DNA of 5,645 nucleotides from a virus (IMGVR_UViG_3300020030_000032:1-5645); one strand, 5' to 3'. Counted from the stretch's first letter, positions 2,441 to 5,645 are shown. Numbers and translations: made by a program. Notes: generated by a model from the letters alone, not told the origin.

Positions 2441-3463
2441 ATGAGTTGCGCAAGACCACTCATCAGAGTATACAATCCAAATGACCACAATATAACGGGG
2501 TCAATCATGACCTTAGAGACATACCGGGAGAGAACACACAATCCAACAGCAACATATGAGAGCATCGCATACCGTACAGACGTAATGCTGCTGCCATGCG
2601 GAAAATGTCTGGGGTGCAGACTCAGACAGCGGCAGGACTGGGAAACGCGAATGCTGATGGAGTCAAAAACGCTGTCACCGGTATGGTTTTTGACCCTAAC
2701 ATGGAATCAAGAGTATGTGCCGGGTATGATAAGAGCAACCGGCGAAATTATAAGAGGCGCAGTGCATCAGTGGACAACCGGAGACGCGCCGGAAGTAGTG
2801 CAAATCCTACTGCAAGAAGACATGGTGCGCTTTAACAAGAGACTGCGCAAAAAACAAGAAATGTCCAATAAATGGGGCTTAGACCTGAGATATTTTTATT
2901 GTGGCGAATACGGCGAAAACACGGGCAGACCACATCATCACGGCATTTATTATGGTTTGGAGATACCAGACCTCAAGAAAAAAAGGGGTGATAATCCGTA
3001 CTTTGAAAGCGAAGAGATAAACAAAATCTGGGGCATGGGCAATGTCATCATCGCAGAGGCATCACCGGAAACAATGGCTTATGTAGCAGGGTATGTAACC
3101 AAAAAGACATACAGTAACGACAACAAAAGATACAGAGAACTAGGGCTGACGCCGCCTTATTGCTGCATGTCGAGGAATCCGGGCCTGGGCTACGACTACT
3201 ACACGAGCCACAAAGAAAAGATGTACGCAGATGATGGACTATACTTTAACGGCAAAAAAAGACCAATACCGAGGTACTTTGATAAAAAGTACGAGAGTGA
3301 GCAACCGGAAAAGCTGTGGGAGACAAAACGTAAGAGACAGGAGAGTGCAATCAATGCACTAAAGCTCAAGATGAGCAATACAGAGCTGACCATCGAACAG
3401 GAAGCAAGAGTCGAGGAAGAGACAAAACAACAGAGGTTTAGAAAAGCCAGAGGGCTATTATAG
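2441..3463 (+). CDS. VP4: Replication initiation protein VP4 (HUH superfamily rolling-circle endonuclease, phiX174 A-like)
   Basis: 340 aa. Cys cluster LPCGKCLGCRLRQRQDW. RCR motif 1 FLTLTW (nt 2687-2704). HUH motif RPHHHGIYYG (His codons 2933-2941). Twin-tyrosine motif AYVAGYVTKK (Tyr codons 3080-3082 and 3092-3094), comparable to YVAKYVNK of the phiX174 A protein. ATG follows the VP2 stop directly (taaATG), with purine-rich ggaagggg 6 nt upstream. Confidence 0.93.
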   Translation: MSCARPLIRVYNPNDHNITGSIMTLETYRERTHNPTATYESIAYRTDVMLLPCGKCLGCRLRQRQDWETRMLMESKTLSPVWFLTLTWNQEYVPGMIRATGEIIRGAVHQWTTGDAPEVVQILLQEDMVRFNKRLRKKQEMSNKWGLDLRYFYCGEYGENTGRPHHHGIYYGLEIPDLKKKRGDNPYFESEEINKIWGMGNVIIAEASPETMAYVAGYVTKKTYSNDNKRYRELGLTPPYCCMSRNPGLGYDYYTSHKEKMYADDGLYFNGKKRPIPRYFDKKYESEQPEKLWETKRKRQESAINALKLKMSNTELTIEQEARVEEETKQQRFRKARGLL

Positions 3464-3467
3464 TGTC

Positions 3468-3515
3468 AGTGGGCCTAATCCTATCAAGAAGAGGATTAGG
3501 CCCACTATTTATTTT
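3468..3515 (+). terminator. Rho-independent-type terminator after rep (perfect 15-bp hairpin plus T-rich tail)
   Basis: agtgggcctaatcct (3468-3482) and aggattaggcccact (3492-3506) are exact reverse complements, with 9-nt loop atcaagaag, followed by atttatttt (3507-3515). It begins 5 nt after the VP4 stop. Confidence 0.75.
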
Positions 3516-3566
3516 CGCTTATTATATATAACTTGTTGTAGCCGTAGTAGTAGGGGCTGTGGAAAA

Positions 3567-3732
3567 GTTGAAAACCATAAATTTGAAACATAACATCGTA
3601 AAAAATAAGCATATTTCACGGTTGAAAAGTTTGTTGAAAACTTGTTGAAATGTTGAAACACTTTACCAGACTAAAATCTATTTCGTATAATGATGTTGAA
3701 AAGTATGTTGAAAATGTTGAAAGTGTTGAAAA
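3567..3732 (+). repeat. Iteron-like array: 9 direct copies of GTTGAAA(A), all in one orientation, in a non-coding region
   Basis: Copies start at 3567, 3621, 3633, 3644, 3652, 3695, 3707, 3716 and 3725, and seven are preceded by T (TGTTGAAA). There are two 38-nt clusters of four (3621-3658 and 3695-3732). Their first 20 nt differ at one base (GTTGAAAAGTtTGTTGAAAA vs GTTGAAAAGTaTGTTGAAAA). Cluster starts are 74 nt apart. A degenerate copy tttgaaac is at 3582-3589, and a partial copy aacttgttg at 3530-3538 matches aacttgttg at 3639-3647. Confidence 0.85.
3662..3691 (+). promoter_or_regulatory. Candidate sigma70-type promoter located between the two repeat clusters
   Basis: TATAAT at 3686-3691 is a perfect -10. 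TTTACC at 3662-3667 gives an 18-nt spacer, or TTACCA at 3663-3668 gives 17 nt. Each is a 4/6 match to TTGACA. Host promoter rules are unknown, so this is tentative. Confidence 0.35.
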
Positions 3733-3867
3733 CTCGCACAGCGAGTAAGGAAAATCAATTTAGCTGAGCTCCGCCGTAGCTCCGCACAGCAAGCGCTTAC
3801 GCGTTCCAGAATAGAGGAGCAGGGGACGGAAGCTGACGAAAAAGTTTCAAAAAACTTTAAAAAAATC

Positions 3868-3896
3868 TTGGCTTTTTTAGAAAAATATAGTATAAT
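3868..3896 (+). promoter_or_regulatory. Candidate sigma70-type promoter for the small-ORF cassette
   Basis: TTGGCT (3868-3873), a 17-nt spacer, then TATAAT (3891-3896). An A-tract, UP-element-like sequence lies immediately upstream (aaaaaactttaaaaaaatc), together with a 7-bp AT inverted repeat aaagttt/aaacttt (3841-3847 / 3852-3858). It is about 29 nt upstream of ATG 3925. Confidence 0.5.
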
Positions 3897-3924
3897 AAAA
3901 TCACAGAAAGGAAAGATAAAAACC

Positions 3925-4110
3925 ATGATACACATGTATGAAATCCGAAAGCTCGAAAGAAGCGGAAAAGCAACCATCATCCAACAGCTAACAGCAGAAC
4001 CGAAGTCAGCGAAGCAAACATTCAAAAAATACGCGGAAGAAAACCCGGGAATCTACTCTCTGTACCAAGTTCACCGCGTAAGAGTATGTTTCACAGAAGA
4101 GGAGAATTAA
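3925..4110 (+). CDS. Hypothetical small protein, 61 aa (orphan, no recognisable family)
   Basis: This is listed ORF 3868-4110 trimmed to its first ATG (MIHMYEIRKLERSGKATIIQQL...). The listed start 3868 is a TTG inside the predicted -35 box. There is a weak SD (aaagga at 3907-3912, 12 nt upstream). The protein is hydrophilic with no TM segment. Coding status rests on ORF length in an AT-rich, stop-prone context and on tight packing with the next ORF. Confidence 0.5.
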   Translation: MIHMYEIRKLERSGKATIIQQLTAEPKSAKQTFKKYAEENPGIYSLYQVHRVRVCFTEEEN

Positions 4111-4112
4111 AA

Positions 4113-4295
4113 ATGAGAAAGCCTAGACTGAACAAAAACGCCATAGCAAAACTTAAAACCTATGGATACGCAGAATGCGGCAAAAACTACTACGAACTGA
4201 AAGACTACATCGACACAGAAGAAAATCATAAAACGGCGCTTGAATGGACAAACACAAGAACAGGAGACGCAAAAGCATTCGATTGGGAAAAATAA
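4113..4295 (+). CDS. Hypothetical small protein, 60 aa (orphan)
   Basis: ATG 4113 is preceded by GAGGAG (4099-4104, 8-nt spacing) and starts 2 nt after the upstream stop (taaaaATG). Sequence: MRKPRLNKNAIAKLKTYGYAECGKNYYELKDYIDTEENHKTALEWTNTRTGDAKAFDWEK. The alternative listed start ATG 4086 lacks an SD. A terminator hairpin follows immediately. Confidence 0.55.
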   Translation: MRKPRLNKNAIAKLKTYGYAECGKNYYELKDYIDTEENHKTALEWTNTRTGDAKAFDWEK

Positions 4296-4298
4296 ACT

Positions 4299-4324
4299 AA
4301 GAGGGCTTGACAAGCCCTCTTTTT
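4299..4324 (+). terminator. Rho-independent-type terminator closing the two-gene cassette
   Basis: aagagggctt (4299-4308) pairs with aagccctctt (4312-4321): a 10-bp stem (9 bp if the closing pair opens) with loop gac. It runs into a T-run (tcttttt through 4324) and begins 4 nt after the stop at 4295. Confidence 0.7.
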
Positions 4325-4353
4325 AATACAATAAAAGCAGAAAGGGAAATAAA

Positions 4354-4560
4354 ATGTACGACAGAGCATATTATCAACTGTATAAAGGATACAGAGGGCC
4401 GGAAACACCGAACGAATGTGAATACTTCATCCGAAAACTTTACAGACAGCTTAAAAAAGCGTATACTGTAGAAGAGGCGAAAGCCATCATAGAAGAAATC
4501 TACAAATACAGGAGCCAAAAGGCGGAAATGGAGATGAAACAGTGGCAATCATCAGTGTGA
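4354..4560 (+). CDS. Hypothetical small protein, 68 aa, Tyr-rich with a helical-looking C-terminal half (orphan)
   Basis: ATG 4354 with aggga (4343-4347) 6 nt upstream. Sequence: MYDRAYYQLYKGYRGPETPNECEYFIRKLYRQLKKAYTVEEAKAIIEEIYKYRSQKAEMEMKQWQSSV (10 Tyr in 68 aa). No TM segment and no family recognised. Confidence 0.5.
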   Translation: MYDRAYYQLYKGYRGPETPNECEYFIRKLYRQLKKAYTVEEAKAIIEEIYKYRSQKAEMEMKQWQSSV

Positions 4561-4661
4561 AGGAAGTCAAGAACGCCATCAAAATCATGATGGAAATCCT
4601 GGAGAAACTGGACGCGATTTATCACGCGTTGCACGACAAGGAGAATGACGGCAATGACTAA
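4542..4661 (+). CDS. Possible very small ORF (39 aa from GTG 4542; 34 aa from GTG 4557; 24 aa from ATG 4587) filling the gap before the basic peptide gene
   Basis: Frame open from 4455 to TAA 4659-4661. GGAG (4530-4533) lies 8 nt before GTG 4542. Translation: (M)AIISVKEVKNAIKIMMEILEKLDAIYHALHDKENDGND. Its stop overlaps the next start (ATGACTAA), a coupling-type junction. Not in the supplied track, no homology recognised, and the start is uncertain. Confidence 0.25.
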   Translation: MAIISVKEVKNAIKIMMEILEKLDAIYHALHDKENDGND

Positions 4662-5015: not shown

Positions 5016-5511
5016 GTTTCGGAGCGCATACAGCGGACAGTTACGGCATACGAGCCTGACCGGCAACGGCCACGAGCCTAAGTATGAGTACAGGGTGACA
5101 GACGAGGGACGGGAGCTGGTAAAGACCGGCGAGACAGACGTCTATGCACTCATCCAGAGCAGACTGGATGAAACCAAAATCGAAAACATCATCAAGCGGG
5201 CAACATACGACCCTACCGCATTGGGTAGTCAGGACTGGCAGACCAGCGAGACGATGACCGATATTTCGGACGCACCGACAAACTACCACGAGTGGTACGG
5301 ACGTATCAAGGACGCAGAAGCAGAGTTTGACAAGCTGCCCATCGAGATTAAGAACAAATGGGACAATGATGTAGAAAAGTACATCATGGCCTACGGCACC
5401 AAGGAGTGGGCGAGCAAAATGGGCATTTCGACGAAAACAAGCGATGCAGCACAGGCTAATCAGAGCGAGTCCAAGGACAAAATGCACAAAAATAAGGAGG
5501 TGAGTGAGTGA
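5008..5511 (+). CDS. VP3: Internal scaffolding protein VP3, 167 aa
   Basis: This is the in-frame internal ATG of listed ORF 4789-5511, with gaggga (4995-5000) 7 nt upstream. Its start overlaps the upstream stop (ATGAGTGA). Sequence: MSEFRSAYSGQ...DVYALIQSRLDETKIENIIKRA...DISDAPTNYHEWYGRIKDAEAEFDKLPIEIKNKWDNDVEKYI.... The acidic, helical character, the LP-EI-K-F/W-N block and the position directly upstream of VP1 match gokushovirus VP3. The listed 73-aa N-terminal extension is an Arg/Ser-rich alternative frame of the 80-aa gene. Confidence 0.85.
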   Translation: MSEFRSAYSGQLRHTSLTGNGHEPKYEYRVTDEGRELVKTGETDVYALIQSRLDETKIENIIKRATYDPTALGSQDWQTSETMTDISDAPTNYHEWYGRIKDAEAEFDKLPIEIKNKWDNDVEKYIMAYGTKEWASKMGISTKTSDAAQANQSESKDKMHKNKEVSE

Positions 5512-5645
5512 ACCGCAACAGTGAAAACAGATTCGCGGAAAATCCGCAGGTCGGAGTAAGCCGCAGCCGATTCCAGCGCAACAGCGACAACAAAACGACC
5601 TTCAACACCGGCGACCTGATTCCGGTCTATCTGGACGAAGTACTG
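5508..5645 (+). CDS. VP1: Major capsid protein VP1, N-terminal part (GTG start), continuing at nt 1 across the circular junction
   Basis: GTG at 5508-5510 is the first start codon after the in-frame TGA at 5505-5507. AAGGAGG at 5494-5500 is 7 nt upstream. GTGA overlaps the VP3 stop. Translation: (M)NRNSENRFAENPQVGVSRSRFQ.... From 5525 onward this duplicates nt 1-121. Confidence 0.88.
   Translation, partial: MNRNSENRFAENPQVGVSRSRFQRNSDNKTTFNTGDLIPVYLDEVL
5525..5645. repeat. Terminal redundancy, copy 2 (identical to 1-121)
   Basis: Exact 121/121 identity to the window start. Confidence 0.95.

Follow-up and report, generated by a model that had tools for sequence, protein, structure and literature searches.

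A putative DnaA box, DnaA-trio and AT-rich module resembling a bacterial basal unwinding system downstream of the replication initiator gene of gut gokushoviruses

The stretch of viral DNA analysed here (the window; 5,645 nt) carries, downstream of a phage replication initiator gene, a dense array of GTTGAAA units that are probably DnaA boxes in the dialect of the Oscillospirales, 5'-TGT[T/G]GAAA[A/G]-3' (the reverse complement of TTTTCAACA / TTTTCCACA). Joined by a variant box, TGTGGAAAA, and by the TAG repeats, the gap and the AT-rich tract beside it, these units probably reproduce on the phage genome the basal unwinding system (BUS) of bacterial oriC, extended by two auxiliary box clusters. 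As judged from sequence comparison, the phage appears to recruit the host replication initiator DnaA.

Results

A same-strand repeat array in the spacer behind VP4

The window spans a circular gokushovirus genome in full (5524 nt), with window bases 1–121 recurring as 5525–5645, and its + strand carries all genes. VP1 (5508 across the junction to 1606) and VP2 (1646–2440) are followed by VP4/Rep, the HUH rolling-circle replication initiator (2441–3463; Pfam PF23343, 1.8e-14; phrog_942, 6e-104), by a spacer of 461 nt (3464–3924), by four small orphan ORFs, and then by the gene for an ORF8/J-like basic protein of 42 aa and by VP5 and VP3. GC content is 49% for the phage as a whole and 50–57% in the core genes, and it drops to 30–40% between 3460 and 4560. 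The module described here starts 5 nt past the VP4 stop codon and comprises ~230 nt.

GTTGAAA starts at positions 3567, 3621, 3633, 3644, 3652, 3695, 3707, 3716 and 3725, always on the + strand and within 3567–3731; it occurs nowhere else in the window, and reverse-orientation copies are absent from the entire genome. The original prediction had described nine same-strand copies with spacings of 12/11/8 and 12/9/9 nt in two clusters that are offset by 74 nt and led by 20-mers one base apart, and our recount bears this out (the leading 20-mers are identical at 19/20 positions). Enrichment of the 7-mer, proposed at the time as a check, is likewise evident: 200 dinucleotide-preserving shuffles contained 0.88 copies on average and never more than 4, and none reached the nine observed. 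A coding role of the repeats was dismissed, as + strand ORFs crossing them are only 25–32 aa long and the units, spaced by 8, 9, 11 and 12 nt, do not stay in frame. The longest ORF over the repeats (115 aa, – strand, 3678–4025, TTG start) spans cluster 2 alone, and two GenBank relatives have a ‘hypothetical protein’ annotated across this region for which the window offers no equivalent. Rfam covariance models gave no match in 3464–3924 at E ≤ 5, and ARAGORN detected no tRNA in the spacer.

The elements next to the first boxes are arranged as in a basal unwinding system

The BUS of bacterial origins consists of two co-oriented DnaA boxes, DnaA-trios and an AT-rich tract, whereby repeated 5'-TAG-3' represents the DnaA-trio (3'-GAT-5'), a motif for binding of DnaA to single-stranded DNA (PMC8287927, PMC6669920, PMC10721633). 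Its parts in B. subtilis are DnaA-box#6/#7, a GC gap, the DnaA-trios and an AT-rich region (Richardson 2016 and 2019; Pelliciari 2021). Published criteria for a BUS call for a box with at most two mismatches, a second box with at most four, a spacer not exceeding 16 nt and three or more NAN trios. Read along the + strand from 3507 to 3575, the phage DNA presents an AT-rich tract, AACTTGTTG, TAG CCG TAG TAG TAG, GGGC, TGTGGAAAA and (A)GTTGAAAA, with the two four-box clusters further on.

The trio-proximal box TGTGGAAAA (3558–3566, + strand; reverse complement TTTTCCACA) is a tenth, variant unit that abuts the lone first GTTGAAA copy; it fits the relaxed consensus TTWTNCACA and has one mismatch to TTATCCACA, i.e. 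fewer than the two allowed, and none to the box type of the host origins. The second, co-oriented box AGTTGAAAA (3566–3574, + strand) contains the lone GTTGAAA (3567–3573) and occupies the position of B. subtilis DnaA-box#6; it follows in tandem within the accepted distance of 0–3 nt and has three mismatches to the canonical box (four being the limit), a variant that is common in hosts. Boxes and trios are separated by GGGC (3554–3557, + strand), which corresponds to the ‘GC-rich’ gap of the BUS and has the typical short length (~4 nt, at most 16). The trio array TAG CCG TAG TAG TAG (3539–3553, + strand) consists of 3'-GAT-5' repeats reading outward from the boxes: three consecutive trios lie without interruption on the TGTGGATAA strand (3545–3553), followed by the CCG break and one more TAG, and in relatives there are five, either TAG GAG TAG TAG TAG or (TAG)5. 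The pattern TAGTAGTAGNNNNTGTGGAAAA is expected 0.00 times according to 200 shuffles. Beyond the trios, an AT-rich tract (3507–3531; A/T at 22 of 25 positions, including the 13-nt run TTATTATATATAA) takes the position of an origin unwinding element. A location next to dnaA/dnaN, as in a chromosomal origin, was not found, the module being placed between VP4 and the accessory ORFs. Because of this microvirus location and the lack of dnaA/dnaN neighbours, we term the element BUS-like rather than oriC.

The remaining boxes form cluster 1 (3620–3659, + strand; GGTTGAAAA, TGTTGAAAA, TGTTGAAAT and TGTTGAAAC, with start-to-start distances of 12, 11 and 8 nt) and cluster 2 (3694–3732, + strand; TGTTGAAAA, TGTTGAAAA, TGTTGAAAG and TGTTGAAAA, spaced by 12, 9 and 9 nt). 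All ten boxes share one orientation.

For comparison, the B. subtilis BUS reads 5'-TATAAAAAA-TAGTAGAAGTAATAGTAG-GGCC-TGTGGATT-TGTGGATAA-3' (Pelliciari 2021, Table S1, written there 3'→5' and reversed here), and the window reads 5'-TTATTATATATAACTTGTTG-TAG CCG TAG TAG TAG-GGGC-TGTGGAAA-AGTTGAAAA-3' on its + strand (~3519–3575). Both have in common the order of elements, their strand and polarity, the 4-nt gap and the 8-nt step from box to box, and the trios lie 5' of the boxes on the strand on which the box reads TGTGGATAA. For the combined pattern, the 200 shuffles likewise give an expectation of 0.00. The gap itself differs in sequence, being GGGC in the phage, GGCC in B. subtilis and GGGG or GGTA in the hosts considered below. 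Unlike the BUS, the phage module resides in a 5.5-kb ssDNA phage beside an HUH Rep gene and not beside dnaA/dnaN, its boxes all point one way, and the invariant AACTTGTTG is embedded at the junction of trios and AT-rich DNA.

Candidate nick motifs and further elements around the boxes

AACTTGTTG (3530–3538, + strand) stands out by column conservation: across 85 unique elements its conservation is 90% or higher, its columns are invariant in an alignment of 13 genomes, and the trio pattern does not explain it. It resembles CAACTTG^ATA, the cleavage context of phiX174, and is a candidate nick or recognition site for VP4; SpV4 has AACTTGATA. A hairpin at 3468–3506, with a perfect stem of 15 bp and the loop ATCAAGAAG, is the dominant structure of the predicted ssDNA fold. 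Across 86 unique relatives its loop motif (C)TATCAAG (reverse complement CTTGATA) is invariant and its stems covary, with two unrelated stem sequences as well as point compensations. The hairpin lies upstream of the proposed opening region, by 43–404 nt in relatives and ~60 nt in the window, and is a candidate Rep recognition or nick element, or alternatively a terminator. Candidate VP4 nick motifs are AACTTGTTGTAG on the + strand and CTCTTCTTGATAGGA in the – strand loop of the hairpin; the repeats sit 30–200 nt from the two candidate motifs. On the other side, cluster 2 is directly followed by a GC-rich hairpin module (3733–3835), which belongs to at least three alternative sequence families in relatives.

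The module is conserved among gut gokushoviruses

BLASTN of the spacer against GenBank phages retrieved 46–47 records, all of them gut Microviridae (from human, pig, dog, monkey, mink and raccoon guts), with 68–95% nucleotide identity in the repeat region; many of these relatives have core genes too diverged for megablast. Thus, the arrays that the original prediction proposed to seek in relatives do exist, and the repeat organization is conserved in other gut Microviridae. The layout in twelve fetched relatives, directly after VP4 and always on the same strand, is a lone copy, ~54 nt, cluster 1, ~45–55 nt and cluster 2; there are also relatives that are devoid of cluster 2. The module is present in 13 of 13 aligned GenBank genomes (window included) and in 46 INPHARED records. 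The 13-genome alignment features a near-invariant block upstream of the first copy, ATATA-TAACTTGTTGTAG-nnG-TAGTAGTAG-(4 nt)-TGTGGAAAAGTTGAAAA. Individual copies in relatives toggle among TGTTGAAAA, TGTGGAAAA, TGTGGATAA and TGTGAATAA, which all belong to the DnaA-box family, TGTGGATAA being the canonical DnaA box read from the other strand.

Scanning of IMG/VR for TAGTAGTAG-N3-6-TGTGGAAAA matched at least 119 stretches, and the matches listed include ~85 microvirus contigs of 4–6 kb. When IMG/VR loci were chosen by VP4 similarity alone, 38 of 48 carried the module (32 recognized by the pattern search and six by inspection); the other ten have at most two boxes, and their contigs end at or soon after VP4. 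All in all, the module occurs in more than 100 genomes of gut gokushoviruses. When the IMG/VR pattern matches, the VP4-selected loci and the GenBank loci are pooled, VP1 is 40–90% identical to that of the window (53 loci fall in the 40–50% band) and VP4 43–97%.

Within 90 unique elements, 817 boxes have the same orientation and 12 are reversed. Relative to the proximal box, conserved positions are 0, +8, +62, +74, +85, +93 and +137 to +166. The box at position 0 is found in 90/90 elements, as fixed by the search pattern, and the box at +8 in 98%; the cluster 1 positions (+62, +74, +85 and +93) are occupied in 46–88% and those of cluster 2 (+137 to +166) in 38–56%. The gap between trios and boxes always measures 4 nt and is variable in sequence (85 phage elements from the pattern search, which allowed 3–6 nt).

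In Chp2, phiMH2K and SpV4 we found no boxes, no trios and no TATCAAG hairpin, which argues for a lineage-specific module and not for an origin of the whole family. A plasmid source was rejected since PLSDB plasmids did not match, apart from four short spurious Acinetobacter matches. Absence from the classical gokushoviruses and from PLSDB plasmids therefore suggests a lineage-specific acquisition that has been kept under selection. When the arrangement was sought with canonical TGTGGATAA boxes instead, 28 viral stretches matched, and no microvirus was among them. As side observations, several contigs of tailed-phage size bear canonical BUS-like elements, and viral contigs of ~95 kb that match TAGTAGTAG..TGTGGAAAA share one common conserved stretch and have no other boxes.

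The same boxes populate chromosomal origins of Oscillospirales

With each GTDB species represented by one genome, a scan for runs of three GTTGAAA copies separated by 1–5 nt yielded at least 120 loci. Many of these matches are simple tandem repeats unrelated to origins, and none of the loci listed encodes microvirus proteins. Among the matches listed, five loci, all from Oscillospiraceae, Ruminococcus or Negativibacillus (L016, L053, L081, L093 and L120), have their arrays inside the dnaA–dnaN spacer, in the neighbourhood rnpA–rpmH / dnaA / dnaN / recF; seeding with the phage motif gives these host loci an ascertainment bias, and most are metagenome-assembled genomes. Counting both strands, TTTTCAACA and TTTTCCACA occur 5–33 times per dnaA–dnaN spacer in the five loci, that is, TGTTGAAAA and TGTGGAAAA are abundant there when read on the other strand, and the canonical TTATCCACA accounts for 1 of 88 boxes. 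Four of the five arrays end in two adjacent boxes, a 4-nt spacer (10 nt in one genome), a run of TAG and AT-rich DNA. The origin ends read TTTTCAACagTTTCAACA-CCCC-(CTA)5-aacatatatac at L053 and TTTTCCACagTTTCAACA-tacc-(CTA)5-actatatac at L081, and the reverse complement of the phage element reads GTTTTCAAC-TTTTCCACA-GCCCC-(CTA)3-CGG-CTA-CAACAAGTTATATATAATAA.

To compare the boxes themselves, weight matrices were built from 88 host boxes and from the 817 phage boxes of the 90 unique elements and evaluated at the positions that the search left free. T at position 0 has a frequency of 0.86 in both sets, T and G share position 3 at 0.81:0.19 in phages and 0.82:0.18 in hosts, with C never occurring, and A at position 8 has 0.62 in phages and 0.70 in hosts. 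The flanks are also alike, A-rich on the 5' side and T-rich on the 3' side, and neighbouring boxes are spaced by 8, 9, 11 or 12 nt in phages and by 8–12 nt in hosts. Accordingly, phage module and Oscillospiraceae/Ruminococcus/Negativibacillus origins share TGT[T/G]GAAAA boxes, flanks, spacings and an end composed of box-box, GGGG or GGTA in the hosts, (TAG)5 and AT-rich DNA. However, the host spacers are 400–1200 nt long and hold 5–33 boxes on both strands, whereas the phage module has ~230 nt and uses one strand. The GC content of the five origin-bearing loci, 34–40% as compared to 49% in the phage, counts against the host match.

Independently, published tables contain the same 9-mer: for Ruminococcus albus 7, the two oriC boxes predicted are both AAAAGTTGT, which equals TGTTGAAAA (Pelliciari 2021), and TGTTGAAAA is also the species-specific DnaA-box motif given by DoriC for one Chlamydophila strain. 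At the position that corresponds to C6 of TTATCCACA, TGTTGAAAA departs from the high-affinity box, so the notion of a dialect rests on origin location and abundance. Triple-box arrays of Oscillospirales were also seen away from oriC, beside zapA-, mraZ- and gyrA-like genes.

Discussion

Theta origins of plasmids and phages (P1 oriR, pSC101, F, RK2) are familiar cases in which a foreign replicon combines host DnaA boxes with an AT-rich region and an initiator gene of its own. These origins employ an iteron-binding Rep, whereas the phage initiator is a rolling-circle HUH nuclease and the boxes come with the full box–gap–trio arrangement. In the A-site of the ABC primosome (Masai and Arai), a hairpin with a DnaA box allows a single-stranded replicon to start its complementary strand through DnaA. 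There, the box is base-paired in the hairpin stem, whereas the phage lacks inverted copies and its boxes are unpaired in the centroid of the predicted ssDNA fold; presentation of the boxes by an A-site type of ssDNA hairpin was rejected on these grounds. For the same reasons, the boxes should act in the duplex replicative form.

The units could also be genuine host DnaA boxes that do not promote unwinding, serving to titrate DnaA against host initiation or to let DnaA act as transcription factor or growth-state sensor, which we consider unlikely. With ten boxes on every replicative form and a high copy number, the phage would provide a strong DnaA sink, and the arrays by zapA-, mraZ- and gyrA-like genes show that box clusters with non-origin roles exist in Oscillospirales. 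Yet, neither titration nor regulation requires trios, a 4-nt gap or an AT-rich tract, which are the most conserved columns of the spacer, and owing to this complete box–gap–trio–AT arrangement we favour DNA opening over mere titration or transcription control. A regulatory role could build on the promoter-like TTTACC-18-TATAAT between the clusters of the window (3662–3691, + strand), but this site is not conserved and lies outside the conserved module; a conserved strong promoter is located ~135 nt downstream of the last box. TATAAT is indeed present at 3686–3691, with TTTACC 18 nt upstream, as the original prediction had stated. Its view of a promoter straddled by two clusters of bound protein nonetheless applies only to the window and its closest relatives, since most of the genomes in the 13-genome alignment have TTGTGCAACATTTTG at this position or a deletion. 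The further suggestion that -35-like TTGAAA hexamers titrate RNA polymerase or a sigma factor lost its footing as well: TTGAAA agrees with TTGACA at 5/6 positions, but conserved -10 partners at 16–18 nt were not found, and only two copies have partners at all, which are weak (9/12 matches). An operator pair around the promoter in the manner of R1 parC would draw on the same TATAAT and face the same lack of conservation. Neither promoter-related version would account for the identity with host boxes, and we assign them hardly any probability. In this context, an R1 parC/ParR or omega-protein-heptad-like system was dropped because no DNA-binding protein emerged from the small ORFs (3925–4110, 4113–4295, 4354–4560 and 4542–4661), in which Pfam and PHROGs searches for DNA-binding families gave no credible match, ribbon-helix-helix included.

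The remaining alternatives concern the identity of the binding protein and the question of function as such. Like the iterons at the pMV158 ‘bind’ locus and those of geminiviruses and CRESS-DNA viruses, the phage repeats are direct repeats of one orientation near a Rep gene and a hairpin or candidate nick motif, and their place just downstream of VP4, close to candidate nick motifs, would suit iterons bound by the phage's own Rep. However, iterons are Rep-specific and covary with Rep, whereas the phage repeats match host origin boxes and stay constant even across Reps of 43% identity, the motif being the same at 43–97% VP4 identity. The identical motif with its flanks dominates host chromosome origins, where VP4 is absent, and Chp2, phiMH2K and SpV4 have a homologous VP4 but no such repeats. 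What mainly speaks against a phage-encoded binder is that the repeats equal host origin boxes and do not covary with VP4, and we regard VP4 in this role as improbable. What stands of the initial iteron idea is that a replication initiator very probably binds the repeats, whose layout is conserved, in a cooperative manner; what becomes unlikely is the phage initiator as the protein bound, given that the 9-mer is common to Oscillospirales dnaA–dnaN spacers. A comparably small chance is left for another oriC-acting host protein of these Clostridia such as a Spo0A-like regulator. The 0A box is TGTCGAA, and in B. subtilis oriC 0A boxes overlap DnaA boxes; TGTTGAA is a single mismatch away from it, and many Oscillospirales form spores. 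But origins must hold DnaA boxes and this 9-mer is the only abundant one in the five dnaA–dnaN spacers, the unit is 4 nt away from the trios exactly like DnaA boxes, and the variable position is T or G but never C in phage and host boxes. Finally, a functionless passenger piece of host origin DNA, gained by recombination, would be compatible with the low GC content shared with the adjoining accessory region and with the resemblance to host oriC. It is very hard to reconcile with retention in more than 100 genomes of only ~5.5 kb, whose proteins diverge down to ~40% identity and whose box positions and orientation are preserved.

If the module is a BUS copy, as we think probable, host ATP-DnaA would bind the ten boxes cooperatively in the double-stranded replicative form and, starting at the two boxes next to the trios, would oligomerize onto the trio-bearing + strand. 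DnaA would then open the adjacent AT-rich DNA (region 3507–3553), which holds the invariant AACTTGTTG and lies at a distance of 1–60 nt from the invariant-loop hairpin. Opening may provide the HUH nuclease VP4 with a single-stranded substrate for nicking, may load the host helicase, or may do both, and phage DNA replication would thus be coupled to the initiation potential of the host. A need for DnaA is not known for any rolling-circle ssDNA phage, and phiX174 has none; this counts against the explanation, as does the CCG break, which leaves the window with only three uninterrupted trios. As a tentative extension that we hold with considerable doubt, a gut gokushovirus lineage may have captured the origin-opening core of its host, so that the replicative form is opened by DnaA and possibly fired as a DnaA-dependent mini-chromosome. 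DnaA could in this case replace supercoil-driven melting in presenting the nick site to the HUH Rep; alternatively, it could permit plasmid-like, cell-cycle-coupled maintenance (a carrier state) without integration.

To our knowledge, microvirus replication is understood almost wholly from phiX174, and the origin and host factors of gokushoviruses are undescribed; full-text searches of the literature retrieved no account of either. The same searches, whose coverage mostly excludes subscription journals, found no description of a DnaA box, oriC or DnaA-trio module for Microviridae, gokushoviruses or phages. Foreign replicons with DnaA boxes are known, and so is the BUS as such; a rolling-circle ssDNA phage with a complete BUS-like module, apparently written in the box dialect of the host, did not turn up in these searches. 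The BUS-like elements on contigs of tailed-phage size hint that origin capture by phages is more widespread.

The sequence records consulted for these viruses give no host. Should origin capture hold true, the box dialect of a phage genome would be a signal for host prediction, here pointing to Oscillospirales; it offers a clue to Oscillospiraceae or Ruminococcaceae at the level of order or family only. In turn, the phage boxes may serve as comparative evidence that TGTTGAAAA is a working DnaA box in this important group of gut anaerobes. With a concrete DNA of 230 nt and a named protein, the proposal is directly testable. A conserved DnaA box, trio and AT-rich module next to the Rep gene would be the first known hint that a rolling-circle ssDNA phage depends on the chromosomal initiator of its host.

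Genomic surroundings of the BUS-like core

The window is a circular genome of 5524 nt; its positions 1–121 are repeated exactly at 5525–5645 as a terminal redundancy, and the VP1 reading frame, which starts with a GTG codon at 5508, crosses the circle junction. Five nucleotides past the stop codon of VP4, the gene for the rolling-circle initiator (Rep), begins a hairpin with a perfect 15-bp stem (3468–3506), whose loop ATCAAG is unchanged among 86 unique relatives while its stems covary. The complement of this loop reads CTTGATA, the nick consensus of the phiX174/pC194 type. The hairpin could represent a Rep site or a terminator. In SpV4 (L326), the sequence AACTTGATA, the phiX174-type cleavage context, is found at 1640–1648 on the strand that encodes the annotated capsid gene. 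Chp2 carries neither AACTTG nor CTTGATA. Alignment of 13 genomes (A1) revealed that most relatives (L001, L002, L004–L010 and L012) possess a purine-pyrimidine and partly palindromic tract of ~45 nt with alternating GCGCGCAC/GCGTGC (columns ~236–280), which separates the hairpin from the AT-rich region and is absent from the window.

Some BLASTN matches to the spacer among GenBank phages (INPHARED H89–H98, e.g. KT264800, KT264801 and MG945430) cover only the basal unwinding system (BUS) and box cluster 1 (query 16–152). These relatives lack cluster 2, which is therefore dispensable in part of the lineage. Directly 3' of cluster 2, the window harbours a GC-rich hairpin module (3733–3835) without a match in Rfam, and at least three alternative sequence families occupy this position among relatives. 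These families have in common CGCACGGC followed by a GGCGC-loop-GCGCC hairpin. The module may serve as complementary-strand origin or as a structured leader. A low-GC accessory module (3840–4560) encodes three orphan ORFs of 60–68 aa each and has its own sigma-70-like promoter (TTGGCT-17-TATAAT; 3868–3896) as well as a hairpin terminator (4299–4321). Gene content at this position differs in relatives, a peptidase M15 being among the genes present there.

Related box arrangements in larger viral contigs and in bacteria

Among the matches listed, BUS-like elements also occur in non-microvirus IMG/VR contigs of 9 kb to 160 kb (L296/L305/L316, L304, L309, L313–L315, L319 and L320, as well as L208/L219/L295, L238/L260, L226 and L242). 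Here, an AT-rich stretch, (TAG)3–6, a gap and TGTGGATAA or TGTGGAAAA are followed by several further DnaA boxes, so that the BUS-like elements are complete. They may represent phage origins, phage-plasmids or stretches of host origin DNA. Among the matches listed, L187, L191, L192, L199 and about 20 more slices of ~95-kb IMG/VR contigs match TAGTAGTAG-N6-TGTGGAAAA, in all cases inside one highly conserved stretch, which has neither additional boxes nor an AT-rich flank. This match is most likely coincidental and probably lies inside a gene.

In Oscillospirales genomes, the triple box GTTGAAAACTCnGTTGAAAnnGTTGAAAA was also observed distant from dnaA (L024, L031, L034, L040, L048, L054, L112, L128 and L132, among the matches listed), in the neighbourhood of zapA-like, mraZ-like and gyrA-like ORFs. 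Such triple boxes may represent clusters of DnaA boxes that serve in regulation.
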